This document shows positions 1,407 to 26,750 of a stretch of DNA of 64,000 nt, in pieces. Below the pieces are notes generated by a model. That model ran no database searches, was not told the origin of the DNA, and saw only the letters and a list, made by a program, of their open reading frames with translations. This stretch comes from Fastidiosipila sp. (GTDB lineage: Bacteria > Bacillota > Clostridia > Saccharofermentanales > DTU023). Made by a program: the position numbers and the translations under genes. Within the stretch, counting starts at the first letter, position 1, and each line of letters opens with the position of its first letter. Location: assembly GCA_012511175.1 (NCBI GenBank), contig JAAZGO010000026.1, positions 9,073-73,072 of the forward strand, given 5' to 3'.

Positions 1407-2378
1407 ATGGTGACCATTATCGGCAGTTTGAATATGGATCTTGTTGTCACGGCCGACCGGGCCCCCCAAGAGGGTGAAACAGTTCAAGGCAGCAGTTTTT
1501 CCCAGTTTCCGGGCGGCAAAGGAGCCAATCAGGCAGTCGCGGCTGCAAGGAGCGGCGCAAAAACCGTCCTGGCAGGAAGAATCGGAGACGACAGCTTCGG
1601 TGAAGCCCTGGTCCGTTCTCTGGCTCGGGATCCCATCGATACCTCTGCGATTGAAAGAATCGCCGGTGTTCCGACGGGAACAGCGGCCATCACGGTCGAC
1701 AGCCGGGGTCATAACCGCATCGTGGTCGTCCCGGGGGCCAACGGTGCCTGGACGGCTTCCCATGTGGAAGCAATCCGCTCCCTGATCGCCCAATCCAATG
1801 TTCTGCTTCTCCAGCTTGAAATTCCGCTTGAAGCCGTTGCGAGGGCTGTCACAATCGCCCGGGAGGAAAATGTTTTTTGCATGGTCAATCCTGCACCTGC
1901 CTTGCCGCTGCCAGCGGATTTTTACCCTTCCATCGACCTGCTGACCCCCAATGAAAATGAACTGGGCCTTCTGTCAGGAATTACCCTGGGCGGGCCCCGT
2001 GGCTGGCGCAACGCAGCCAGGGTTTTGCTCAACCGCGGGCTCCCCGCCATTGTCGTCACACTGGGGGAAGAGGGCTCCCTTGCCATGGACGACAAAAGTG
2101 ACATGCACCTGCCCGCCTACCCGGTTAAAATGGTTGATTCCACCGCGGCAGGCGACTGCTTCAACGGCACCTTGGCCGCGGAAATCGATGTCATGCTGGA
2201 GGCAAGGGGAAAAACCTGTTCGCGCACGGCCTTCACAGTCATGGAACTGGCGCCTGCCATTGACCGGGCCACCCGGGCCGCTACCATATCAGTCACGCGC
2301 CGGGGGGCACAGCCTTCGATCCCCTGGCGGGAGGAAATCGACCGCTTCGAGACGTGGTTTGAAGAACACCGCCTATGA
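1407..2378 (+). CDS. rbsK: ribokinase (PfkB family)
   Basis: 323 aa. Motifs: IGSLNMDL, GGKGANQAVAAAR, TPNENE and DSTAAGDCFNG (PfkB signatures). Confidence 0.85.
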   Translation: MVTIIGSLNMDLVVTADRAPQEGETVQGSSFSQFPGGKGANQAVAAARSGAKTVLAGRIGDDSFGEALVRSLARDPIDTSAIERIAGVPTGTAAITVDSRGHNRIVVVPGANGAWTASHVEAIRSLIAQSNVLLLQLEIPLEAVARAVTIAREENVFCMVNPAPALPLPADFYPSIDLLTPNENELGLLSGITLGGPRGWRNAARVLLNRGLPAIVVTLGEEGSLAMDDKSDMHLPAYPVKMVDSTAAGDCFNGTLAAEIDVMLEARGKTCSRTAFTVMELAPAIDRATRAATISVTRRGAQPSIPWREEIDRFETWFEEHRL

Positions 2379-3181
2379 ACCAAAGAAGACCGATTATTCT
2401 TTCCTGTTCGAAAGACGGTCTGCTCATCGACTGCCTTTTCACCTACAACCGGCGGGCCTGCCGACCGCCGAAAAAAGAGACGGCAAAGAGAGAGCCGCTC
2501 TGCGATGTCATCGAGCGCGGTATCCGTGACAACTGGTCGGGCCGGTATGCCATCGACTTGCAACTGGGAGCTGCTCTGGCGGCCTTCTGCAGACAGGCAG
2601 GTACGGCCAACCCTTTCGAAGGAGCGGATTTCCTGCCCGTTGAAGTTCAGATCAAGCGGTTTGGTGAGGGTGCGCTTGTCCCTGCTCTGCTCACTTTCAA
2701 GCAATTTATCACCCGTAAAAGATCTCCTGCCCGAATCTACGTCAGGCACAGCGCTATCCTTCCCTCCCATGCGGCAAGTCCGCTCCACCGGCGGATCTGG
2801 GGAGTCTTTAAGACCGGCCAGCTCGAGAGTATAGGCTTTAATTGGAGTCCATCCCACCCCGGCTACATCACGATTACCAGCAATACAGCGCCAAGCCGTT
2901 TGCCGCAGGTCGCCGCCCACGAAGCCGGTCATCTCTTCGGCCTGGGTGATGCCTATGCTGCCTGGTACCGTTTCTTTGCCGCCGCTCCAAATACCCAAGG
3001 CTACATGATGCGGGACACCTCGCGGGTCCAGCCGGCCGAGATCGCCATGCTGCTTATGGCTCACACGACGGGCCGGATGCAATACTTCCCCCGGGTTTTT
3101 CACCTCCGGAACATCGCAAGGGGGCTTTACAGGACATTCATTCTTTCGATAGTTAAACCTTTCAGAAAACATACCGGTTAG
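2375..3181 (+). CDS. putative zinc metallopeptidase (HExxHxxGxxD, snapalysin/metzincin-like motif)
   Basis: 268 aa. The ATG overlaps the rbsK stop (ATGA). Third codon positions are G/C-rich in this frame. AAHEAGHLFGLGDAY is followed by GYMM, a possible Met-turn. The competing antisense ORF 2117-3172 has no recognisable motif. Confidence 0.5.
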   Translation: MNQRRPIILSCSKDGLLIDCLFTYNRRACRPPKKETAKREPLCDVIERGIRDNWSGRYAIDLQLGAALAAFCRQAGTANPFEGADFLPVEVQIKRFGEGALVPALLTFKQFITRKRSPARIYVRHSAILPSHAASPLHRRIWGVFKTGQLESIGFNWSPSHPGYITITSNTAPSRLPQVAAHEAGHLFGLGDAYAAWYRFFAAAPNTQGYMMRDTSRVQPAEIAMLLMAHTTGRMQYFPRVFHLRNIARGLYRTFILSIVKPFRKHTG

Positions 3182-9141: not shown

Positions 9142-10923
9142 TTGAATGAAATACAAAGAAACCATCAAACAACAATCAACGTGACTCAAAAGGCCAACCT
9201 TATTTGGGCAATAGCAGACATCATTGGGCAGGGTCTTTATAAACCCCACGAATACGGCAAGATTATTTTGCCTATGACCGTCATCAAGCGATTCAATGAC
9301 GCTCTTCTTCCGACCAAAGCAGAGGTCATGAGGGAATATGAAAAGACGAAACACCTGCAGGTTGCTGACATTCTTTTAGAGAGGGCTTCGGGGTATCTCT
9401 TTTACAACATCAGCCCTTTCACTTTTGAAAATCTTGTTCAAGACCCTGACCACATCGAAGCAAACTTTAGAGCCTTCTTGGGTGGCTTCTCTGAAAATGT
9501 AAAAGATGTCTTGGATAACTTTGAGTTTGAAAAAGAGATATCAAAGCTGGCAAATAACGGAATGCTCTTTTTGATTATCCAGGAGTTTAATAAACCGAGT
9601 GCTTACATGGGTCCTGACCTTATTTCCAGCACGGACATGGGCTACGTCTTCGAGGAATTGGTCAGACGCTTTTCTGAGTCCTACAACGAACAAGCAGGAG
9701 CTCACTTCACAAGCCGAGACATTATCTACCTCATGACAGACCTTCTTATCTCAGAAGACAGGGAAGTTTTGACTCAGGAGACGGTTGGGAAAACAGTTTA
9801 TGACCAAACCATGGGAACCAGCCAAATGCTGGCTTGTATGGAAGAAAGGATCAAAGACCTAAACAAAGAAGCTGGCGTAATTTTGTTCGGACAAGAATTA
9901 AATCCCGAAACTTATGCTATAGCCAAAGCGGATATGCTCATCAAGGGTGGCAACGCTGAAAACATGAAACTTGGGAATACGCTCACCAATGATCAGTTCC
10001 CTGGCTATACCTTCGACTACTGTATTTCCAATCCTCCCTTTGGGATTGACTGGAAGGTAGAAAAATCCTTTGTTGAGGCAGAAGCTAAAAAAGGGAATGC
10101 AGGACGTTTTGGTGTAGGACTTCCCCGAATTAGTGACGGGCAGCAGCTCTTTGACCTGAATGGACTTGCTAAGCTTAAGGATACGGGGAGAATGGCGATT
10201 GTCCATAATGGCTCTCCCTTGTTTGTGGGGGACGCAGGGTCAGGTTCCAGCGAAATCAGACGCTACATCATAGAGAACGACTGGCTGGAAGCAATCGTTC
10301 AATTACCCAATGACAGCTTTTACAACACGGGGATTACAACCTATGTCTGGATTATGTCAAAGAATAAAGCCCCTCACAGAAGAGGGCGAGTTCAGTTGAT
10401 TGATGCGTCCAAGATGTTTGACAAGAGGCGTAAATCCATCGGACATAAAAGAAACGATATATCAGAAGCTTGCAGGGAAGTTATCATTCAGGCTTACGGA
10501 GAGTTCGAAGACAAAGAATACGAGCTTGGTGACCGTGTTTGTGAGTCCAAGATTTTTGAGAATATTGAGTTTGGTTTTAATCGAATCGTGATTGAAACGC
10601 CTGAATATGATGAGAACGGACAGGCTGTAAAAAATAGGGGCAAAAAGGTTGCGGATACCAAGAAGCGTGACTATGAGAATGTTCCCCTCACCGAAGACAT
10701 TGACAGTTATTTTGAAAGAGAGGTAAAACCTTACAATCCTGACGCTTGGATTGATAAGAACAAAATATCTGTTGGATATGAGATTCCCTTCACTCGTTAT
10801 TTCTACAAGTTCCAGCCGCCTGAGAAGTCTGAAGATATTGCTGACCGGATTATGGCGATGGAAAAAGACCTCATGGTTTCTCTTCATGAATTGTTTTCTG
10901 ACGGAGGTGAGGCAGTTGAGTAG
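9142..10923 (+). CDS. hsdM: type I restriction-modification system, methyltransferase subunit
   Basis: 593 aa, TTG start 8 nt after AAAGGAGGG. HsdM N-terminal motif ANLIWAIADII..YKPHEYGKIILPMTVIKRF. SAM-binding region DQTMGTSQML and catalytic NPPFG (CISNPPFGIDW). Confidence 0.9.
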   Translation: MNEIQRNHQTTINVTQKANLIWAIADIIGQGLYKPHEYGKIILPMTVIKRFNDALLPTKAEVMREYEKTKHLQVADILLERASGYLFYNISPFTFENLVQDPDHIEANFRAFLGGFSENVKDVLDNFEFEKEISKLANNGMLFLIIQEFNKPSAYMGPDLISSTDMGYVFEELVRRFSESYNEQAGAHFTSRDIIYLMTDLLISEDREVLTQETVGKTVYDQTMGTSQMLACMEERIKDLNKEAGVILFGQELNPETYAIAKADMLIKGGNAENMKLGNTLTNDQFPGYTFDYCISNPPFGIDWKVEKSFVEAEAKKGNAGRFGVGLPRISDGQQLFDLNGLAKLKDTGRMAIVHNGSPLFVGDAGSGSSEIRRYIIENDWLEAIVQLPNDSFYNTGITTYVWIMSKNKAPHRRGRVQLIDASKMFDKRRKSIGHKRNDISEACREVIIQAYGEFEDKEYELGDRVCESKIFENIEFGFNRIVIETPEYDENGQAVKNRGKKVADTKKRDYENVPLTEDIDSYFEREVKPYNPDAWIDKNKISVGYEIPFTRYFYKFQPPEKSEDIADRIMAMEKDLMVSLHELFSDGGEAVE

Positions 10924-12172
10924 ACGAATGAAAGATTCAGGTGTTGAGTGGATAGGGGAGATACCAGAAGACTGGGGAATGTCCTTATTAGGTAATCACT
11001 TTAGAGAGCGAACAGAGAGAGTTTCTGACTTTGATTATGAGCCACTATCCGTGACAAAAAGAGGGATACTCAGGCAACTTGAAACTGTTGCTAAAACGTC
11101 GAATAGAGACGACAGGAAGAAAGTCTGCATCAATGATTTTGTTATAAACTCACGCTCGGATAGAAAGCAATCGTGCGGTTTATCGTCACTAAACGGGTCG
11201 GTCTCTGTAATAAACACTGTGCTTGCGATAAGAGATATTGACCCAGAATACGCAAAGTATCTATTAGACAATTACGGTTTCGCTGAAGAGTTTTATAGGT
11301 GGGGAACAGGAATAGTCGATGATCTTTGGTCCACAAGATACAGCTCAATGAAGAAGATTCGAATTCCTATTCCTCCTCAACAGGTTCAGTCGAGAATCGC
11401 CACCTACCTCGACCAAAAAACCGCAACCATCGACCACATTATTGAGAAGACAAAAGAATCCATTGAAGACTACAAGCTATACAAACAATCCCTGATAAGT
11501 GAAGCCGTCACCAAGGGGCTTAGCCCTGATATGAAACTCAAAGATAGCGGTGTTGAGTGGATTGGGGAGATGCCTGAGCATTGGGCTATAAGCAAAATAA
11601 AGCACGTTGCGGATTTTGCTCCAAATCTGAACTTGGAGTTTGATGAGGAACAACCTATCGGCTACGTTCCTATGGATCGAGTGAAAAGCGGCTACCTGTT
11701 GCCCGGAGAAAGCTTGTTCCAAAATCTGAGCACCGGACTTGTTCCTTTCCAAGAGGGTGATATCGTCATGGCAAAGGTGACGCCATGTTTTGAAAATGGA
11801 AATATTGCGGTTGCGAAGAATTTATCACAACGAGTTGCTTACGGAAGTTCAGAGCTGTTTGTTTTTAGGAGTCATGGGGTAGATACTGACTATCTATATT
11901 ATTTTCTTCAAACAAATCTCTTTAAAGATGCTTCTGTTGCAACAATGACGGGGACGGGGGGGCTAAAACGCGTATCATCTTCTTTCGTAAGGAACGCCTA
12001 TCTTCCCATGCCTTCAGTTGTAGAGCAAAAAGAAATCTCTTCCCATCTGGGTAGAGAAATAAGGAAGATGGAAGAAACGATTATTCAAAAAGAACAACTC
12101 ATTGAAGACTTAGAAGCTTACAAAAAATCCCTCATCTACGAAGTTGTCACAGGCAAAAGGGAGGTTCAGTAA
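10916..12172 (+). CDS. hsdS: type I restriction-modification system, specificity subunit
   Basis: Two-TRD architecture. The conserved segment is repeated (MKDSGVEWIGEIPEDW at the N-terminus and LKDSGVEWIGEMPEHW mid-protein; DNA about 10931-10977 versus 11540-11586). Coiled-coil spacers are present (EDYKLYKQSLISEAVTKG / EDLEAYKKSLIYEVVTGK). TTG 10916 (GGAGG 8 nt upstream, overlapping the hsdM end) is preferred. ATG 10928 is an alternative. Confidence 0.85.
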   Translation: MSRRMKDSGVEWIGEIPEDWGMSLLGNHFRERTERVSDFDYEPLSVTKRGILRQLETVAKTSNRDDRKKVCINDFVINSRSDRKQSCGLSSLNGSVSVINTVLAIRDIDPEYAKYLLDNYGFAEEFYRWGTGIVDDLWSTRYSSMKKIRIPIPPQQVQSRIATYLDQKTATIDHIIEKTKESIEDYKLYKQSLISEAVTKGLSPDMKLKDSGVEWIGEMPEHWAISKIKHVADFAPNLNLEFDEEQPIGYVPMDRVKSGYLLPGESLFQNLSTGLVPFQEGDIVMAKVTPCFENGNIAVAKNLSQRVAYGSSELFVFRSHGVDTDYLYYFLQTNLFKDASVATMTGTGGLKRVSSSFVRNAYLPMPSVVEQKEISSHLGREIRKMEETIIQKEQLIEDLEAYKKSLIYEVVTGKREVQ

Positions 12173-12174
12173 TC

Positions 12175-15100
12175 ATGGACTACAAAGAAAAACGCTTTGA
12201 AGAGGACATCGAACAATGGCTTCTGATCTATGGCGGTTATACCAAAGGCGACCAAAAAACCTATGACAGAAAAAAAGCCCTTGACCTCCCCAAGCTGGTT
12301 GAGTTCATTCAAGCAACCCAACCCAAAGCATGGGAACGCTACGTCTATACCTACAAAGCGGACGCAGAAAACAAGCTATTCAAACGGTTTACTGAGGAAG
12401 TTGAATTAAACGGACTTCTCCATGTTCTAAGGCGAGGGATAACCGACCACGGGATCAGACTCCGTGTCGCAGCCTTCCCTCAAGAGTCAACCCTCAATCC
12501 GGAGGTCGTAAAGAACTATGAAGCCAATATCCTGACAGTCACCCGGCAATTCAAGTATTCCACAGCCAATGAAAATTCGATTGATATGGTGTTGTCATTA
12601 AATGGCATACCTATTGTTGCTTTGGAGCTGAAAGACCAATTTACAGGTCAGAATGTTGATAACGCCAAAAAGCAATTCATGTATAACCGTGACCCAAGAG
12701 AACTCTGCTTCCAATTCAATAAACGCTTCCTGGTTTGTTTTGCGGTTGACTTAGATGAAGTTGAGATGACAACAAAGCTCGAAAGGGGCAACACCGTCTT
12801 CTTACCTTTCAATCAGGGAAGTAGTGGTTCGGGGAAAGTAGGAGGGGCAGGGAACCCCAAAAACGTTGAGGGCTATCCAGTTTCATATTTATGGGAACAG
12901 GTTTTGAAAAAAGACTCTCTCATGGATCTTTTGAGGCGTTATCTCCATTTAGATCAAAAGGTTGAGAAAGTCGTAAAGAACGGCAAGGAGACCCGAAAGA
13001 GAGAAGAGAAACTCATTTTCCCCCGCTACCATCAGCTCGATTCTGTCCGGTATCTTTTAGGGGACGCAAGAGCAAATGGCAGCGGTCAAAACTACCTTAT
13101 TCAACACAGTGCCGGTTCAGGAAAGTCAAACTCCATCGCTTGGCTTTCTTATGGATTGGCAAGCCTCCATGATGAGAATAACCAACATATCTTTAATTCG
13201 GTTATCGTGGTGACTGACCGGAAGGTATTGGACAATCAGCTCCAAAGAACCATCTCTTCTTTTGACCATACCAAGGGGCTTATTGAAATAATAGACGACA
13301 AAAAGACCTCTCAGGATTTGAGGAAAGCCATCAATGACGGGAAGCGGATTATTGTCACGACCCTTCAAAAGTTCCCCTTCATCTACGAAGAAATTGATGA
13401 AGTGAAAGGCAAACGCTTTGCTGTCATCGTTGACGAAGCCCATTCAAGCCAGACGGGAAAGAGTGCGGCAAAGCTACGGGAAGGTCTGACGGATACGGAA
13501 GAAGCTCTCAGGGAATACGAGAGGATTGAGTCAGCCGAAGAAAGGGAAGCAGAAGACTACGAAGATAAGATTGTAAATGAGCTTTTGGCTCACGGCCGCC
13601 AGGAGAATCTTTCTTTCTTTGCCTTTACCGCAACCCCCAAACAAAAGACGTTAGAAGTATTCGGCAAGAAGACACCCGAAGGCTCTTTTATTGCTCACCA
13701 TATTTACAGCATGAGACAAGCCATTGAAGAGGGCTTTATCCTGGATGTCTTGAAAAACTACATGACTTACAAAACCTGCTACAAGATTGCCAAAGAAACA
13801 GAAGATAACCCAGCATTACCGTCTTCCCTTGCGACAAGAACCATCAAAAACTACCAGTCGCTTCACCCTTATAACCTCCAACAAAAAACGGCCATCATTA
13901 TTGAACAGTTCCGAGAGGTCACAAAAAAGAAAATCGGAGGAAGAGCCAAAGCTATGGTGGTCACGTCTTCCCGTCTTCATGCGGTGAGATATTACCATGA
14001 GTTCAAACACTACATTGAACGAAAAGGTTATGAGGATGTCGATATTCTGGTTGCCTTTTCGGGGATTGTGAAAGACCATTCCATTGATTACACCGAAGAG
14101 GGGATCAATAAGAGAAGAGACGGCAGCACCATCAAGGAAGACCAGCTCAGAGACGATTTTCACGGAGATGATTTCAATGTTCTGATTGTTGCTGAAAAAT
14201 ACCAGACTGGATTTGACGAACCACTCCTTCACAGTATGTTTGTCGATAAAAAGCTGGAAGGTGTGAAGGCAGTCCAAACTTTATCAAGGTTGAACCGTAT
14301 TTACCAAGGAAAAGAAGACACCTTCGTTTTGGATTTTGTGAATACGGGTGATGACATTCAAGAAGCCTTCAAGCCTTACTATGAGGCAACCATTCTTGAT
14401 GAAGAAATAAACATCAACTTGATTTACGATACGAGGTCAGCCCTTCAGCAATACGGTCTTTACAATAACGAGGACATAGAAGAATTCGTCAAGATTTACT
14501 ACAAGAAGGGGAAACAGACGGAGACTGATTTGGGGCGTATGACTTCCGCATTAAAACCCGCTGTCAAACGCTACGAGGATCTGGACGAGGATGAGCGTTT
14601 TGGTTTCAAGCGTATCGCAAGAAACTTCGTCAGGTGGTATGCCTATATCACTCAGATTGCCAGAATGTTTGATAAAGAACTTCACAAGGAATATGTCTTT
14701 GTTTCCTACCTTGAAAAGCTTCTTCCCAAAGTCAGTCCGGATCCCGTTGATTTAGAGGGAAAGCTGAAACTTGAATTCTACAAATTACAGCAGACCTTCA
14801 AGGGCGACATTAGTTTCTCACCCATCGGGGAAGAACAGGTCATATATAACCCTGAGAACATCAACCCTGAATCCAGTCCGGAACCGGACGAGCTCTTGGA
14901 AACTATCATCAAGCGTATCAACGATCGTTATACGGGAACGTTTTCTGAAAGCGATAGGGTAATTGTTGAGACAATTTACAACCGAGGAATCAAGAACAAC
15001 AAAGAAGTTGAAAAATATGTCAAAAGCAACGACATGGAAGTTTTCATAAACAGTATTTTCCCCCAAGTTTTCAAGGCAATAGCTCAGAGCCTTTATGCTG

Positions 15101-15198
15101 AATCAATCGAGTCATACACGAAGCTTTTTGAGGACAGAGAACTCTACGCTTCGGTCATGGAAGAGATGGCACGACAAGCCTATAAAGAGCTTGGATAA
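12175..15198 (+). CDS. hsdR: type I restriction endonuclease, R subunit
   Basis: 1007 aa. N-terminal PD-(D/E)xK-like nuclease region (IDMVLSLNGIPIVALELKDQ). SF2 motor with Walker A-like QHSAGSGKS and DEAH box (VIVDEAHSSQTG), then helicase C motifs (AEKYQTGFDEP, QTLSRLNR). Confidence 0.9.
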   Translation: MDYKEKRFEEDIEQWLLIYGGYTKGDQKTYDRKKALDLPKLVEFIQATQPKAWERYVYTYKADAENKLFKRFTEEVELNGLLHVLRRGITDHGIRLRVAAFPQESTLNPEVVKNYEANILTVTRQFKYSTANENSIDMVLSLNGIPIVALELKDQFTGQNVDNAKKQFMYNRDPRELCFQFNKRFLVCFAVDLDEVEMTTKLERGNTVFLPFNQGSSGSGKVGGAGNPKNVEGYPVSYLWEQVLKKDSLMDLLRRYLHLDQKVEKVVKNGKETRKREEKLIFPRYHQLDSVRYLLGDARANGSGQNYLIQHSAGSGKSNSIAWLSYGLASLHDENNQHIFNSVIVVTDRKVLDNQLQRTISSFDHTKGLIEIIDDKKTSQDLRKAINDGKRIIVTTLQKFPFIYEEIDEVKGKRFAVIVDEAHSSQTGKSAAKLREGLTDTEEALREYERIESAEEREAEDYEDKIVNELLAHGRQENLSFFAFTATPKQKTLEVFGKKTPEGSFIAHHIYSMRQAIEEGFILDVLKNYMTYKTCYKIAKETEDNPALPSSLATRTIKNYQSLHPYNLQQKTAIIIEQFREVTKKKIGGRAKAMVVTSSRLHAVRYYHEFKHYIERKGYEDVDILVAFSGIVKDHSIDYTEEGINKRRDGSTIKEDQLRDDFHGDDFNVLIVAEKYQTGFDEPLLHSMFVDKKLEGVKAVQTLSRLNRIYQGKEDTFVLDFVNTGDDIQEAFKPYYEATILDEEININLIYDTRSALQQYGLYNNEDIEEFVKIYYKKGKQTETDLGRMTSALKPAVKRYEDLDEDERFGFKRIARNFVRWYAYITQIARMFDKELHKEYVFVSYLEKLLPKVSPDPVDLEGKLKLEFYKLQQTFKGDISFSPIGEEQVIYNPENINPESSPEPDELLETIIKRINDRYTGTFSESDRVIVETIYNRGIKNNKEVEKYVKSNDMEVFINSIFPQVFKAIAQSLYAESIESYTKLFEDRELYASVMEEMARQAYKELG

Positions 15199-15265: not shown

Positions 15266-16879
15266 CTACATGAAACGACTGGCACGAATCGCTTCTAAAT
15301 CTTCCTCTGAAATCTTCATGGGTTGGTTCTCGGAAATCAACCGATAAAGAATATTTTCAATGTCAGGGTGCTTCAAAATCATAGAGATAAGAACCCATTT
15401 GTTCATTTTTCTGTAGCCCCTAATTCCACACTCTTTAGAGATTTCATAGAGCCTGGAATTAGGCAAGTCGAACAGATATTCACGCCTGTTGAAACTTCTA
15501 ACACCATCTTCTTCATTAAACTTGAAGTATTTATTGTTGGTGGCTTCCCTTGCTCTCTTGGTATTCTCACGAAGGAGGGTAGTATATCGAGAGCTTGGCA
15601 TAGGAAGGTTGATTTCTTGTTGCATGACTTCGGGAAGAGTGTAATTCGCCATTCCTTTCAAAATTTCAACAAAAATCATTTCAGCGTCTTTTTCCGATGA
15701 GGGATACTTGCCATGCGTCACTCTCCAATTTCGGATGTAATTGAAAAAGCCAACATAGTATTCAAGATACTTCGTTGAAACATTCGTCATGTTCTTAACG
15801 ATATAGAGCTTAATGTCCTTATGAAGCTCATTGACACGGGCGAGATTTAACCCTTTTTCTTTTCGAAGTTTCAAAAAATCTTCATAGAGCAGTCCACCCA
15901 CGTTATTGATGTGATCGATTTCTTCTCTTCGGTAAAGTCTATTCATAATGACAGCATTTTCCCGTCTTGCTTCTTTTACTCCAAAGACATCCGCAAGGTC
16001 TGCATCCACAACTCCGTTGCTTTTCAAAATCTCGTCATAGTTAGACGGCCGAACATAATGAGGATAATTGAATATTCCACACACTTCCTTATAGACGGTG
16101 TTGGCGTCCGAGCAAACATAAGCAGGATGGTCAAGGTGTTCTACAAAAAAGTCTGTAATCAGTTCTTTGGTGACCCGACCCATCGCTGTCACTTTGCAAA
16201 CACAATAGCCCCTGTTATCAATGGCTGTGACTACCGTGGCAAATTCAGGACCCATGACTCCCACTATTGAGGGCTTACGACCATAACGGGGTTTCCTCTT
16301 TGTGTCTTTTGAAAGATAGGAAACAAGCCCCCTGCTTCCCTTTTGACTTTCTCGAATAAAGGTTTCATCTACTTGGACAACCCCACTCAGAAGAGGCGTA
16401 TTCATTTTCGAGAGGGCATGGATTAGTTTCATACGCCAGAACCAGACCGTCTTGATATTGATTCCCTCATAGCCATAATCTCTTTCCAAAACATTCTGCA
16501 TGGATTTGAGAGAAAGATTGTTGATTGTCATTTGGAGCATTTTGACCCACGCATCCCAATGCCAGTTGTTCTTTTCAAGGATGGTTCCCGTGAAGCGTGT
16601 AAATCTCTTATGACAAACCTTACACAGATAACGCTGCGAGCCATCAGACCGCTTACCATTCTTGACGACATCCTTGGACTGACAGCTCGGGCAGACACTA
16701 TTGATGTCATGCTTTTCGAGTTGAGATTGAAGGCTGTTTGTGATGGCTTGTTTGACTTCATTATCAAAGCTGACCCCCGACTCTTTTGAGTAGCCGTCCA
16801 CCAGCTTCTTCATGGCGTGAAAGGGGAGCTGTGAGAAGATTTCTTGTAATTCTTGTTCTGAATAAGTCTTCTGGTTCAT
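15266..16879 (-). CDS. IS1595-family (ISXO2-like DDE) transposase with long C-terminal extension
   Basis: ATG 16879 follows GAGAGGAGG; the track's upstream start is less likely. Zinc ribbon CPSCQS...YLCKVCHKRF, then FTGTILEKNNWHWDAWVKML. DDE_Tnp_IS1595-like VVQVDETFI ... VCSDANTVY ... NELHKDIKLYIVKNMTNVSTKYLEYYVGFFNYIRN. The 537 aa compare with roughly 300 aa for typical family members. The C-terminus carries a Rho_N/SAP-like motif (LYEISKECGIRGYRKMNKWVLISMIL). Confidence 0.8.
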   Translation of the reverse strand: MNQKTYSEQELQEIFSQLPFHAMKKLVDGYSKESGVSFDNEVKQAITNSLQSQLEKHDINSVCPSCQSKDVVKNGKRSDGSQRYLCKVCHKRFTRFTGTILEKNNWHWDAWVKMLQMTINNLSLKSMQNVLERDYGYEGINIKTVWFWRMKLIHALSKMNTPLLSGVVQVDETFIRESQKGSRGLVSYLSKDTKRKPRYGRKPSIVGVMGPEFATVVTAIDNRGYCVCKVTAMGRVTKELITDFFVEHLDHPAYVCSDANTVYKEVCGIFNYPHYVRPSNYDEILKSNGVVDADLADVFGVKEARRENAVIMNRLYRREEIDHINNVGGLLYEDFLKLRKEKGLNLARVNELHKDIKLYIVKNMTNVSTKYLEYYVGFFNYIRNWRVTHGKYPSSEKDAEMIFVEILKGMANYTLPEVMQQEINLPMPSSRYTTLLRENTKRAREATNNKYFKFNEEDGVRSFNRREYLFDLPNSRLYEISKECGIRGYRKMNKWVLISMILKHPDIENILYRLISENQPMKISEEDLEAIRASRFM

Positions 16880-16986
16880 CGGAAACCTCCTCTCAATCAA
16901 GGTGCGGTTCATTTCCTTACACCATAAGGCTATCATAATCTCTCGAAAATATCAAGCAGAAAATGGGCATATTTGCATTCTGAAGC

Positions 16987-21616: not shown

Positions 21617-21695
21617 CATTAATCCCTCGCTTTTCGTCCTCACTCGGGTCTTTTATCTTGCGCAAAAAGACATCCTCATGGTAGCATGTGCACAG

Positions 21696-21710
21696 TTATA
21701 ATAATTATGA
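21696..21710. promoter_or_regulatory. PerR/Fur-type box 1
   Basis: TTATAATAATTATGA versus the Bacillus PerR box TTATAATNATTATAA; one mismatch. Confidence 0.6.
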
Positions 21711-21712
21711 CT

Positions 21713-21727
21713 TTGTAATCATTATAA
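21713..21727. promoter_or_regulatory. PerR/Fur-type box 2 (inside the palindrome ATGACTTT-11 nt-AAAGTCAT, 21707-21733)
   Basis: TTGTAATCATTATAA; one mismatch to the PerR box consensus. Its centre is 17 bp from box 1. Confidence 0.6.
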
Positions 21728-21792
21728 AGTCATAAAGGAAGACTGCCCCCTCGGGGATCAGGCAGAACAGACACAGAAAGGAATCGTGAAAA

Positions 21793-22401
21793 ATGCCAAT
21801 GGTCGGAAAACAGGCCCCCTTGTTCGAAGCAGGCGCCTACTACAAGGGGAAGTTCACCAAGGTGAAACTGGAGGACTACAAAGGTCAATGGGTGATGCTC
21901 TGCTTCTATCCCGGCGACTTTACCTTTGTCTGAGGGACAGAGGTGTCTGCAGTTGCAGCCAAGTATGAAGAATTTGAGAAACTGGGCGTACAGGTCCTGT
22001 CGATCTCGGTTGACAGCGAATTCGTCCACAAGATCTGGAATGACGTCGAGCTGTCGAGAATTGCCGGCAGGGATGTTCCCTTCCCCATGCTGTCCGACTC
22101 CTCGGGCGCCATCGGTGAACTCTATGGCGTCTATGACCGGGAGGCGGGCGTCAATGTCCGCGGCCGTTTCATCATCGATCCCGATGGCAAGATCCAGGCC
22201 ATGGAGGTCCTGACGCCTCCGGTCGGAAGAAACGTCTCAGAAGCCATCCGCCAGATCAAGGCCTACCAGCTGGTACGCAAGACAGGCGGCAAGGAAGTTA
22301 CGCCTTCAGGCTGGCAGGAGGGCGGCAAAACACTTAAACCCGGTATCGGCCTGGTCGGGAAAATCGCTGATCACTGGACGGTCGCCGACTCCTACAAGTG
22401 A
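21793..22401 (+). CDS. prxU: selenocysteine-containing peroxiredoxin (in-frame UGA at codon 47)
   Basis: Read by hand from ATG 21793: [77 protein letters not shown]... The stretch upstream of TGA and the track ORF 21943-22401 are in the same frame. Together they form a full-length 2-Cys-type Prx fold, with TGA exactly at the peroxidatic Cys of FYPxDFTFVCPTE. Confidence 0.8.
21931..21933 (+). other. in-frame TGA read as selenocysteine
   Basis: It replaces the peroxidatic Cys codon. Sequence on both sides is conserved Prx. Confidence 0.75.
21936..21961 (+). promoter_or_regulatory. candidate SECIS region (small hairpins just 3' of the UGA)
   Basis: GACA-GAGG-TGTC (21936-21947) and CTGC-AGTT-GCAG (21947-21958, extendable by 2 bp past a mismatch). 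The stems are short and the fold was not computed. Confidence 0.3.
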
Positions 22402-22431: not shown

Positions 22432-22857
22432 ATGGGCTCAAAGACGGTCGATCTGCTGAAAGAGCACGGAATTAATCCTTCCAGCCAAAGGGTGCATATT
22501 TACCATTACCTGGCGGCCTCCAAGGAACATCCGACGGTTGATGACATTTACGCAGAACTGCAAAAGGACGGCCATCTCTTCTCGCGGGCCACCGTCTACA
22601 ACACGGTCAACCTTTTTCTTGAAAAAGGCTTGATCCGCCCGGTCAAGGTGGAGGCCCACGAAATGCGCTTTGACGCCACCCCGGGTTTTCACGCTCATTT
22701 CAAATGCGAATCCTGCGGCCTTATTTTGGATATTCCCATGAAGGAACCGCTGCCAGATGACACAGGCGGGCTTGAGATCCGCCGGACCAGTGTAATTTTC
22801 AGCGGTCTATGCGGCCAATGCCTAGAGAGTCAAGGCGGCAGGCAAAGCGGGCTTTGA
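22432..22857 (+). CDS. perR: Fur-family transcriptional regulator, PerR-like
   Basis: 141 aa. N-terminal wHTH (SQRVHIYHYLAASKEHPTVDDIY), HAHFKCESCG and a second CxxC (LCGQC). It sits downstream of prxU, behind PerR boxes. Confidence 0.75.
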   Translation: MGSKTVDLLKEHGINPSSQRVHIYHYLAASKEHPTVDDIYAELQKDGHLFSRATVYNTVNLFLEKGLIRPVKVEAHEMRFDATPGFHAHFKCESCGLILDIPMKEPLPDDTGGLEIRRTSVIFSGLCGQCLESQGGRQSGL

Positions 22858-22869
22858 TCTTCCGCTGAT

Positions 22870-22902
22870 CCCCGGCCGCAATAAGCGGCCGGGGAGTTTT
22901 TT
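22870..22902. terminator. hairpin + T-run after perR
   Basis: CCCCGGCCGC-aataa-GCGGCCGGGG followed by AGTTTTTT. Confidence 0.75.
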
Positions 22903-24377
22903 CAGCGGTCTGTCAGGGGGATTTCCAGCTGAATCCTGCCATCACGCCGGACACGGGGAATCTTATTTTTCCGGAAGTACTCAATCACATTATCCTGGGC
23001 CGAGGTGCTGACTACCCGCACGCGGCCCTTTTCCGCCAACTCTTCCTGGCTGATCCCGAATGTATCGGCGATGATGCCAAAATGATAGTCCTGCATGGCA
23101 ATCCGGTAATCCGCTTCTGGGTCAAGCGGATTGCCTTTCATCAGGATTTCCCCGATCTCCCCGTCCCCGCCGACCCGGACCCGGAGTTCCGCGTTCCATT
23201 GGTAAAATTCACGCGATCCCTCCCTGTGCAAGGTCCGCATCAGATGCGCCAGCATGTCTTCCAGTACCCGGCCGGTGACAGAGAAGCTGATCATGGCCTC
23301 ATCGTAGGGGTAAAGCTCCATCAAGTCGGACCGGGTCACCAGGCGCGACAGTTTGGGCTTGCGGATGGAACCCGAGGCAATAAATACAATATCGACCCCC
23401 AGCTGGAAACGGAGAATATCCGAAAATAAATTGCCGAGTTCTGTTTCGCGGAAGCGGTCCGCGTGTTCCATCTCGTGCGGCAGCCGGCAGATCACCGTAT
23501 TATACTTGCCATCCACCTCTTCCTGGTACTTGGACAGGAGCTCTTCCATGACGGGGTCAGCCGGACAATGCGTGTCATCGATGGGGACCGCCTGCCAGGA
23601 AAATTCGTGGACCGAATTGGTATCCATGTTGATGACAAGATCGAAACGGCCGATAAAATCGGTTCCCGACCCCACCTGGGCGATCAGGATATCATTGACG
23701 CGCTCGGGCGTTTCCAGCATGGTGTGGCTGTGTCCGCCGATGATGAGATCCACACCGATTTCAGGCGGCAGGAGCGCGGCCAGTTTCTTATCCTGCTCGA
23801 AGCCGATATGTGTTAAGAGAACAGTCAGGTCGATGTCGACGTCCTTGTAGCTGTTGCAGATGTACTCAACTTCTTCCGCGGCGTCCTCGATGCTGATAAA
23901 AGTACCGACCAGGGGCTCGCTCTTGCTTTTGGCGATTACTTCCTCGGTGACAATCCCGATGAAAAGTATCCTGATTCCGTCTGTTTCAATGATGTGGTAG
24001 GGCTTGAAGAGGTTGGCGCCCGTCGGCTTGATATAAAGGTTGGCGTTGACGATGGGAAAGTTGGCACAGCGTTCCAGGAACATGAGGTGTGAGAAGCCAT
24101 AGTCAGTCTCATGGTTGCCCAGTGTCACCACATCGGGCTCCAGCATGTTCATGACCAAGATGGTTGAAATCCCCCGGTATTCCTGATCGATGATGGATCC
24201 CTGGAGCATGTCTCCCGAGATGACGTAGAGAACCGGATCAGTCTCCTCTTCCCTGACCTTGTGAACATAGCCTGAGAGCCGGCTCATGCCGCCGACCATC
24301 TTGTCGTGGGTTTCCTTGGCGAAAAAATCGCCGTGCATGTCATTGGAATGAAGCAATACCAGCTTTCTCAGATCCAT
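22902..24377 (-). CDS. bifunctional metallophosphatase/5'-nucleotidase family protein
   Basis: 491 aa. Motifs HSNDMHGDF, GDMLQG, GNHETDYG and GGHSH, plus a C-terminal nucleotidase domain. No signal peptide. Confidence 0.85.
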   Translation of the reverse strand: MDLRKLVLLHSNDMHGDFFAKETHDKMVGGMSRLSGYVHKVREEETDPVLYVISGDMLQGSIIDQEYRGISTILVMNMLEPDVVTLGNHETDYGFSHLMFLERCANFPIVNANLYIKPTGANLFKPYHIIETDGIRILFIGIVTEEVIAKSKSEPLVGTFISIEDAAEEVEYICNSYKDVDIDLTVLLTHIGFEQDKKLAALLPPEIGVDLIIGGHSHTMLETPERVNDILIAQVGSGTDFIGRFDLVINMDTNSVHEFSWQAVPIDDTHCPADPVMEELLSKYQEEVDGKYNTVICRLPHEMEHADRFRETELGNLFSDILRFQLGVDIVFIASGSIRKPKLSRLVTRSDLMELYPYDEAMISFSVTGRVLEDMLAHLMRTLHREGSREFYQWNAELRVRVGGDGEIGEILMKGNPLDPEADYRIAMQDYHFGIIADTFGISQEELAEKGRVRVVSTSAQDNVIEYFRKNKIPRVRRDGRIQLEIPLTDR

Positions 24378-25605: not shown

Positions 25606-25627
25606 TTATTGAGGCGCAAAAGTTTTC

Positions 25628-25662
25628 AAACAGGCTGTTTCCAAAGAAGAAACAGCCTGTTT
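25628..25662 (+). terminator. 14-bp hairpin between the lipoprotein gene and apbE (possible attenuating terminator)
   Basis: AAACAGGCTGTTTC-7 nt-GAAACAGCCTGTTT, with only a weak T-tract after it. Confidence 0.4.
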
Positions 25663-25691
25663 CCTTGTCTCGCAAAACAGGCGGAGCAGCT

Positions 25692-26750
25692 ATGAAACGT
25701 AAGGGACTTTTCCTTTTTTTGATATTTTTCCTTTGTTCCCTGATAGCCGCCTGCACCGGGCCGGGGAAGGAGGACAAGGGACCCCAAAAATATGAAGCCG
25801 AATTCGTCGGCCTTTTCGATACCCTGACCCGGGTCATGGGCTACGCCGACAGCCAGGATGCATTCAAGTCGACCGTCCAGGCCTTGAAGGACGATCTTGA
25901 AGTCTACCACCAGCTTTATGACATTTATCATGCCTACCCCGGCCGGGTCAACATCAGGACCCTGAATGAGAAAGCCGGCCAGGGCCCGGTCGAGGTTGAT
26001 CCGAAAATCATCGGCCTGCTCCTGTTTTCCAGGGAGGCTTATGACCAAACGGACGGCCGTGTCAACATCGCCTTGGGCGCGGTGACCGGGATCTGGCACC
26101 GCTACCGCCAGGAGGGCATCGATGATCCCCAGGCAGCCCGGCTGCCCGGCAGGGATCTCCTGGAGGAGGCGGCGCGGCATAGCTCCATTGATGACCTGAT
26201 CATTGATCAGGTCCGCTCCACGGTGGAACTGAAAGATCCCCGGATGAGCCTGGATGTGGGGGCGGTGGCCAAGGGCTATGCGGTGGAGCAGGCAGCCCTG
26301 GCGGCTGAGGCCCGCGGCGTCAAGCACCTTCTGATCTCCGTCGGCGGCAACGTTCGGGCCATCGGAGCCCGCAATGACCGGGGCGAACCCTGGCGGGTCG
26401 GCATCGAGAATCCCGATTATGCCGTGGATGATTACCTGGCCATCGTCAAGGCCGATTCCCTGTCTGTGGTAACAAGCGGCGTCTACGAGCGCTTTTACCT
26501 GGTGGATGGTAAATCCTACCATCACATCATTGACCCTGATACCCTTTTCCCGGAAAACAGGTACCTGTCTGTCTCCGTCATCACCCCGGATTCCGGCCTG
26601 GCCGACGTCCTTTCGACAGCCCTTTTCAACCTGGATTTGGAGGAAGGGAAAAAACTGATCGAGAGTCTGGACCGGACCGAAGCGCTCTGGTGCATGCCGG
26701 ACGGCAGCCTGATCGAAAGCAGCGGATTTTCAGCCTTTATAGAAGAATAA
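25692..26750 (+). CDS. apbE: FAD:protein FMN transferase (ApbE family) lipoprotein
   Basis: ATG 25692 (GGAG 6 nt upstream). Lipobox LIAAC. ApbE-like blocks LDVGAVAKGYAV, ISVGGNVRAIG and HHIIDPDT. Confidence 0.85.
   Translation: MKRKGLFLFLIFFLCSLIAACTGPGKEDKGPQKYEAEFVGLFDTLTRVMGYADSQDAFKSTVQALKDDLEVYHQLYDIYHAYPGRVNIRTLNEKAGQGPVEVDPKIIGLLLFSREAYDQTDGRVNIALGAVTGIWHRYRQEGIDDPQAARLPGRDLLEEAARHSSIDDLIIDQVRSTVELKDPRMSLDVGAVAKGYAVEQAALAAEARGVKHLLISVGGNVRAIGARNDRGEPWRVGIENPDYAVDDYLAIVKADSLSVVTSGVYERFYLVDGKSYHHIIDPDTLFPENRYLSVSVITPDSGLADVLSTALFNLDLEEGKKLIESLDRTEALWCMPDGSLIESSGFSAFIEE

Follow-up and report, generated by a model that had tools for sequence, protein, structure and literature searches.

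The selenocysteine (Sec)-containing peroxiredoxin PrxU of Eubacterium acidaminophilum was reportedly described by Sohling et al. in 2001 (Biol Chem 382:979), the family having been known since then, and the protein is said to have 203 amino acids (aa) with the Sec at position 47 (U47). Peroxiredoxins with a TxxU active site are counted among the experimentally verified prokaryotic selenoproteins (PMC13188914), and CLOST_2406 of C. sticklandii is annotated as a seleno-peroxiredoxin with Sec84 in a protein of 240 aa (PMC3091704). Here we analysed a 64-kb stretch of DNA (64,000 nucleotides, hereafter the window) from contig JAAZGO010000026.1 of Fastidiosipila sp. (assembly GCA_012511175.1), in which an earlier note, made from the letters alone, had pointed to a peroxiredoxin gene interrupted by an in-frame TGA. 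All coordinates given below are those of the window. Comparison of this locus with its relatives makes it very likely that positions 21793-22401 (+) encode a Sec peroxiredoxin of the PrxU family, with Sec decoded at the UGA via a Sec insertion sequence (SECIS), in a putative PerR-type peroxide-responsive unit.

The prxU coding sequence (CDS; 21793..22401, + strand) is a single peroxiredoxin frame of 202 codons, which starts at ATG 21793 and runs through 46 codons, the TGA as codon 47 at 21931-21933 and 155 further codons (...SYK) to an ordinary TGA stop at 22399-22401, in agreement with the single interrupted frame first proposed. In the mechanical list of open reading frames (ORFs), it appears as two pieces, 21793..21933 (46 aa) and 21943..22401 (152 aa, GTG start). 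With Sec47 entered as Cys for the profile searches, the joined protein scored 350.3 bits against the NCBIfam model NF040737 (peroxi_PrxU; equivalog cutoff 270), while the next-best model, that of AhpC, reached 198.7 bits and stayed under its own cutoff of 272; the Pfam domains found were AhpC-TSA, Redoxin and 1-cysPrx_C. The closest solved structures are AhpC from Amphibacillus xylanus (1WE0, E = 7e-46) and human Prx2, and in the alignment with both of them the TGA falls on the peroxidatic Cys (FVCPTE vs FV*GTE), as the earlier note had placed it. The active-site motif is P40-G-D-F-T44-F-V-U47, with the UGA exactly on the peroxidatic position of PxxxTxxC, and the assignment of 21931..21933 (+) to a predicted U47, the peroxidatic residue of PxxxTxxU, draws on this alignment together with the conservation of the locus and its recovery in three assemblies. 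The translation also confirmed that C37 is the sole Cys of the protein and that the usual resolving-Cys motif EVCP is replaced by EVTP (EVTPSGW), leaving it without the classical resolving Cys. Codon 48 (21934-21936) encodes Gly. In the PrxU family, the residue after the peroxidatic Sec or Cys is Ala in 86 sequences, Gly in 23, Pro in 5 and Thr in 4, and a residue other than Pro at this place, which in AhpC/Prx1 enzymes is almost always the Pro of FVCPTE, is a trait common to the Sec and Cys forms.

Set beside the described systems, the window protein resembles E. acidaminophilum PrxU in passing the NF040737 cutoff, in having Sec for the peroxidatic Cys in TxxU and no C-terminal resolving Cys, and in being short, at about 200 residues, with residue 47 as the Sec and an anaerobic member of the Bacillota as host. 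It differs in its lineage, which is one of Mageeibacillus/Saccharofermentanales-like metagenome-assembled genomes (MAGs), and in the Gly, not Pro, that follows the Sec. CLOST_2406 belongs to the same selenoprotein family, and its Clostridia genome also encodes a PerR-like regulator; unlike the window protein, it is a long form with its Sec 37 residues farther from the N-terminus, as would fit an N-terminal arm of the type M-x-x-C-x-R-P. Compared with the 2-Cys peroxiredoxins of the AhpC/Prx1 group (1WE0; Prx2 1QMV/7KJ1), the alignment is near full-length (E = 1e-44 to 1e-46), and the PxxxTxx(C/U) motif, the Arg and a C-terminal segment like 1-cysPrx_C are all present, whereas Sec stands for the peroxidatic Cys, Thr for the resolving Cys of EVCP, Gly or Ala for the Pro after the catalytic residue and C37 (position -10) for Phe or Val. 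Judged by these comparisons, the window prxU is an orthologue within a known family and shows nothing that would set it apart in kind.

A scan of related loci, limited to a single genome for each species, gave 36 close loci, and the codon equivalent to prxU codon 47 is TGA in 35 of them, the lone exception being Peptoniphilus mikwangii (L014), with TGT. The TGA loci span four phyla, namely Bacillota (Mageeibacillus/Saccharofermentanales, Tissierellia, Syntrophomonadaceae and Pelotomaculum), Desulfobacterota, Chloroflexota and Coriobacteriia, and the nearest ones, with 82-97% identity, come from uncultured Mageeibacillus/Saccharofermentanales MAGs. Between the window prxU and its twelve clade relatives, the ratio of nonsynonymous to synonymous substitution rates (dN/dS) was 0.06-0.17 in the part preceding the TGA (44 codons) and 0.02-0.08 in the part following it (150 codons), with dS from 0.2 to above 1, and neither a frameshift nor an additional stop was found in prxU of any related locus. 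Since dN/dS is low on both sides of the TGA, both halves are kept as protein, which rules out a pseudogene. A 3.4-kb segment around the gene is 100% identical, TGA included, in three independent assemblies (NCBI GCA_050951905.1, at JBMNJY010000003.1:678232-681657; JGI 3300053716, Ga0534105_00075; ENA ERZ764730), and a sequencing error at the TGA, that is, a misread TGC or TGT, is therefore ruled out as well. Nor has the meaning of TGA changed in this genome: 11 of the 24 confidently annotated window genes, prxU among them, end in it as an ordinary stop, and no internal TGA occurs in the other 23.

Downstream of the UGA, a hairpin at 21944..21961 (+) is the candidate SECIS, on the grounds of covariation, per-sequence folds, its absence from Cys-codon homologues and published criteria for bacterial SECIS elements. 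With the U of UGA numbered 1, its core stem CUGC/GCAG pairs C17-U18-G19-C20 (21947-21950) with G25-C26-A27-G28 (21955-21958) around the loop A21-G22-U23-U24 (AGUU, 21951-21954), and two lower pairs, G15-C30 and U14-A31, lie below a 1x1 mismatch (U16/C29). At least four contiguous pairs in this register close an AGUU or GGUC tetraloop in 29 of 36 TGA sequences, and the GGUC loop of several relatives is that of the E. coli fdhF SECIS. Pair 18-27 is U-A in 14 sequences, G-C in 10 and A-U in 9, with 2 unpaired, and it connects two third codon positions, one in a Ser, Ala or Thr codon and one in an Ala codon, both of them synonymous sites; pairs 15-30 and 16-29 likewise occur in several pair types, with weaker support than pair 18-27. 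The covariation score of the register was 0.294, compared with 0.091 in column shuffles, none of which reached it (0/500), and slid registers gave 0.150 or less. In the comparison with Cys-containing homologues that the earlier note had envisaged, none of the eight loci of the family with a Cys codon (L014, L062-L068) has more than two pairs or an RGUY loop at this position, so that the hairpin goes with the TGA of the Sec forms. Among them, L062 and L063 encode the same peptides as Sec forms (GTEVSAVAA and GTEVAAVAA) and yet lack the hairpin, which therefore is a property of the UGA state and not of the peptide.

The published model of bacterial SECIS elements asks for an apical loop of 3-9 nt, an upper stem of at least 4 bp, 16-37 nt between UGA and loop, a G at loop position 1 or 2, mostly with G or U after it, and a minimum free energy (MFE) of -7.5 kcal/mol or lower (PMC13188914 Fig. 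2), the bacterial consensus of Zhang and Gladyshev 2005 being summarised in the same source. The geometry of the window hairpin agrees with it throughout, with a loop of 4 nt (AGUU) in which G is second and U follows, a stem of 4 bp and 17 nt from the UGA. It is also like the E. coli fdhF SECIS and the consensus in being a stem-loop within the CDS 3' of the UGA, with a small apical loop that has G and then U, but unlike them it is much shorter and weaker in this clade (4 bp + 2 bp, -5.4 kcal/mol). It would be a target of the cognate SelB. The two short hairpins first noticed 3' of the TGA fared differently: the one at 21947-21958 is the conserved core stem, whereas that at 21936-21947 was rejected as part of the SECIS, as it pairs in 56% of cells, the level of the shuffled control, and no compensatory change was found in it.

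Several observations weigh against this reading. The MFE of -5.4 kcal/mol falls short of the -7.5 of the model, in line with the weak SECIS call of the earlier note; values range from -5.1 to -8.3 kcal/mol in the window's clade and from -7.2 to -12.2 in most other clades. Folding of 21931-21990, which had been suggested as a check, gave a single-sequence structure no better than shuffles (z = 0.46), and the conserved, covarying structure emerged only by comparison. RNAalifold predicted no consensus structure on the 48-nt alignment, and Rfam, at gathering and at permissive thresholds, returned no relevant family at the SECIS. Moreover, the covariation leans mainly on the single pair 18-27, the shuffle statistic overstates independence because the clades are related, and 7 of the 36 TGA sequences have variant or shifted hairpins, the variants being an internal U/C mismatch in L020-L023 and a C/A mismatch in L032. 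With respect to the decoding machinery, tRNA-Sec was not found in the window or in the 36 related loci, and neither the window nor the 10-kb flanks of the relatives yielded selA, selB or selD, although for slices of this size neither result is informative. For the regulatory part, the best NCBIfam match of the downstream Fur-family gene is PerR (Clostridia model) at only 84.6 bits, under a cutoff of 180 and with Irr models near. We relied on explicit pair counting because energy-based methods are blind to so short an element, and the covariation, together with the absence of the hairpin from Cys-codon loci, indicates that 21944-21961 is a SECIS and is real despite its weak energy. As a whole, the comparative evidence is that of a retained UGA, a covarying SECIS 3' of it and a full-length protein under selection.

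Two Sec forms deserve separate mention. In L025 (1961-2008; Pelotomaculum sp.) and L028 (244-291; a Clostridiaceae MAG), a hairpin lies about 8 nt farther downstream (AUAGCC-GUU-GGCUAU and AUAGC-AGUUG-GCUAU) and the usual register has none, so the SECIS seems to have changed its place within the PrxU family in these loci.

Other explanations of the locus have to be considered against this background. The interrupting codon is the commonest ordinary stop of the window and no Sec machinery was seen in it, as one would expect if a nonsense mutation had killed a peroxiredoxin at its catalytic codon and left two non-functional ORF pieces; such a pseudogene is extremely improbable given the TGA shared by 35 of 36 loci from four phyla, the purifying selection on both sides of it with no frameshift or extra stop in any locus, the hairpin tied to the TGA state and the conserved promoter, operators and ribosome-binding site described below, and the conservation data effectively refute it. 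It could equally be argued that a sequencing or assembly error hides a true TGC or TGT, since TGA is one base away from a Cys codon and there are homologues of the Cys form (L014, L062-L068), but three assemblies from different projects agree on the 3.4-kb locus with its TGA, which is also present in twelve distinct species of the same clade, making an error here practically inconceivable. The ORF pieces may also be taken at face value, as an N-terminal peptide of 46 residues and a protein of 152 residues that begins at GTG 21943, and both are indeed called in the JGI and ENA annotations. No ribosome-binding site precedes that GTG, however, which sits in the conserved frame and SECIS region; neither piece would contain the whole thioredoxin fold or the residue needed for catalysis, and the start codon there varies among relatives (P0054 begins with V, and P0056 is given M at another residue), so that we regard two separate products as hardly credible.

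A further alternative, very unlikely in our view, is that the UGA is read as Trp, Cys or Gly, through a changed code or SECIS-independent suppression, to give a protein without selenium. Cys is known to be mis-inserted at Sec codons under selenium limitation, and Trp is recorded at the Sec position in 90 of the top 120 homologues (P0010, P0011, P0014-P0016 and others). These Trp entries, however, are an artefact of gene calling, the Logan and ENA calls having used a table that reads TGA as Trp: where a matching locus was available, its codon is TGA, as in L018 for the entry P0011. Most of the nearest database proteins are accordingly Sec forms. TGA ends 11 of the 24 window genes and is never found inside the other 23, an enzyme with Trp or Gly as its peroxidatic residue would be catalytically dead, yet the active-site motif is strongly constrained, and the SECIS-like hairpin co-occurs specifically with TGA. 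The identification first put forward, that of a Sec peroxiredoxin of the PrxU type, is thus upheld by the NF040737 score of 350 bits, the conservation of the TGA, purifying selection and the covarying SECIS.

In bacteria, Sec is decoded at UGA by SelB, and peroxiredoxins reduce peroxides through the attack of their peroxidatic residue. By analogy, UGA 21931-21933 of prxU would not be read as a stop, and the mRNA hairpin 21944-21961 would act as a bacterial SECIS that recruits SelB-GTP-Sec-tRNASec to the ribosome, with Sec inserted as residue 47 of 202. The selenolate of U47 would then attack H2O2 or an organic hydroperoxide, and the selenenic acid so formed would be reduced by a thiol. With no Cys at the classical C-terminal resolving position (EVTP), the oxidised U47 would be reduced either by thioredoxin directly, in a 1-Cys-like manner, or by C37 via a selenenylsulfide. 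Among the top 120 homologues, the classical resolving position is occupied by Thr in 105, Ala in 12 and Cys in 2, and C37 is kept in 115 of 118, at a place where AhpC and Prx2 have Val or Phe. The label of a 1-Cys (Sec-only) enzyme is therefore plausible for PrxU, but the mechanism is unproven because the conserved C37 could resolve.

The N-terminus of the family adds another candidate thiol. An extension of about 30-40 residues is present in 93 of the top 120 PrxU homologues, in Sec and Cys forms alike (e.g., L011-L017, L024, L026, L030, L031, L034, L036 and L062-L068); it starts with M-x-x-C-[DEAS]-[RKT]-P, the Cys motif being found in 82 of the 93, and continues as a charged, low-complexity linker. 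The window's clade is without it. The NF040737 match of the window protein begins at profile position 37, leaving the first 36 or so positions of the profile, which correspond to the Cys-bearing N-terminal arm, uncovered, and the protein can be said to lack the arm because its ATG is preceded, at a distance of two codons, by an in-frame stop. Since short forms are common (24 of the 120), this segment of the profile was not treated as defining. It is conceivable, though we hold it to be rather unlikely, that the PrxU family is not plain 1-Cys and that the selenenic acid is resolved by C37 in short forms and by the Cys of the N-terminal arm in long forms, whose flexible M-x-x-C-x-R-P arm may take the place of the C-terminal arm of 2-Cys peroxiredoxins. 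As the arm was lost and C37 kept, the window's clade would be a natural test case. The literature within our reach held no description of a role for C37 or the N-terminal arm in PrxU.

The surroundings of prxU suggest how it may be expressed. A putative extended -10 element, TGgTAGCAT (21679..21687, +), stands just upstream of two operator-like sites, in a block (CTCATGGTAGCAT) conserved in the closest relatives, although a scan for consensus promoters called none on the + strand at this element. The two sites are of the PerR/Fur 7-1-7 type, TTATAATAATTATGA at 21696..21710 (+) and TTGTAATCATTATAA at 21713..21727 (+), each with one mismatch to TTATAATNATTATAA, the PerR-box consensus of B. subtilis. 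They are the only matches to it with two or fewer mismatches in the 64 kb, where 0.07 would be expected, and both are conserved in the clade relatives. Between the operators and the ribosome-binding site lies a stem-loop of the 5' untranslated region (5'-UTR), CUGCC...GGCAG (21743..21765, +), which is present in all 13 clade sequences (window, L001-L010, L019 and L035) with its structure kept and its stem sequences varying, e.g., CUGCCC/GGGCAG vs CGCGCUCCC/GGGAGCGCG. It is not a terminator, because no T-run follows it, and it may have a regulatory role or stabilise the 5' end of the mRNA. An out-of-frame '...EDCPLG...' in this region was considered as a frameshifted remnant of the Cys arm and rejected, being the GACUGCCC arm of the conserved 5'-UTR hairpin and having no start codon. 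The ribosome-binding site, AAAGGAA (21777..21783, +), is located 9 nt before the ATG, and AGAAAGGAA is invariant in the clade.

Downstream of prxU by 30 nt, and co-oriented with it, is a gene for a PerR-like regulator of the Fur family (22432..22857, +), with a score of 75 bits for the Pfam domain FUR (PF01475). It is followed by a strong intrinsic terminator, with a GC-rich stem of 11 bp and a T-run (22869..22905, +), which marks the end of the prxU-perR unit. The gene order malic enzyme (-), prxU, perR-like gene and 5'-nucleotidase (-) is kept in 12 clade loci. From this arrangement, we infer that prxU and the PerR-like gene form a peroxide-inducible, autoregulated two-gene operon: prxU would be co-transcribed with the gene of a PerR-like repressor from a promoter that two PerR-box-like operators overlap, a layout that suggests induction by peroxide and autoregulation in an anaerobic bacterium of the Clostridia (Mageeibacillus/Saccharofermentanales-like).

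The next gene, UshA-like 5'-nucleotidase (22902-24377, -), matches the NCBIfam model 'UshA-like (seleno)protein, PCGU' with 90 bits, under a cutoff of 275. The TGA directly before its ATG was rejected as a Sec codon, the upstream frame being without the PCGU motif, and for that reason the gene is held to be an ordinary non-seleno paralogue. Other selenoprotein genes were looked for at every window TGA with at least 25 open codons on either side, and the remaining candidates were rejected as gene junctions or antisense frames, one of them, at 842 (-), having a low-complexity junk translation. For the Sec machinery, 54 window ORFs were scanned against Pfam or NCBIfam profiles, a few of them antisense or overlapping frames rather than genes (e.g., 2117-3172 (-) and 25626-26525 (-)), and selA, selB and selD were not among them. 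A tblastn search with an E. coli SelD sequence matched only unrelated Microbulbifer loci, a gene with an AIRS domain beside the Desulfoferula homologue was rejected as SelD, being PurM, and the 64-kb window contains no tRNA of any kind. The remaining window genes are housekeeping ones (thrS, type I restriction-modification, an IS1595 transposase, MBOAT/DHHW, ruvAB, RNase J, relA, recJ, ileS, PPDK and glyS). Of these, the type I restriction-modification genes hsdM (9142-10923), hsdS (10751-12172) and hsdR (12175-15198) are followed by the IS1595-family transposase gene (15266-16936, -), and the segment 9142-16936 may be a mobile or variable island inside the housekeeping region.

The public record of prxU reflects the difficulty of annotating such genes, and the suspicion that ORF callers split it proved well founded. 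In the JGI and ENA assemblies that carry the identical locus, it is called as ORFs of 46 and 152 aa, the closest relatives in the protein database are 152-aa fragments (P0054 and P0056), and the gene index of GCA_050951905.1 (the locus L069), when queried, listed nothing between the malic-enzyme and the Fur-family genes. The Trp at the Sec codon shows that large catalogues of metagenome proteins mistranslate selenoproteins systematically. An apparently intact antioxidant selenoenzyme of a lineage abundant in anaerobic digesters is thus fragmented or mistranslated with Trp in public annotations, and inventories of the selenoproteome or of oxidative-stress defences in such MAGs will undercount PrxU because it is split, mistranslated or uncalled. 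The locus also illustrates that a SECIS below the energy threshold (-5.4 kcal/mol) can be recognised by covariation at synonymous sites and by its absence from Cys-codon paralogues. In scientific terms, the gain is one more member of a family known since 2001, and the mildly novel thread that it offers is the resolving chemistry of PrxU.

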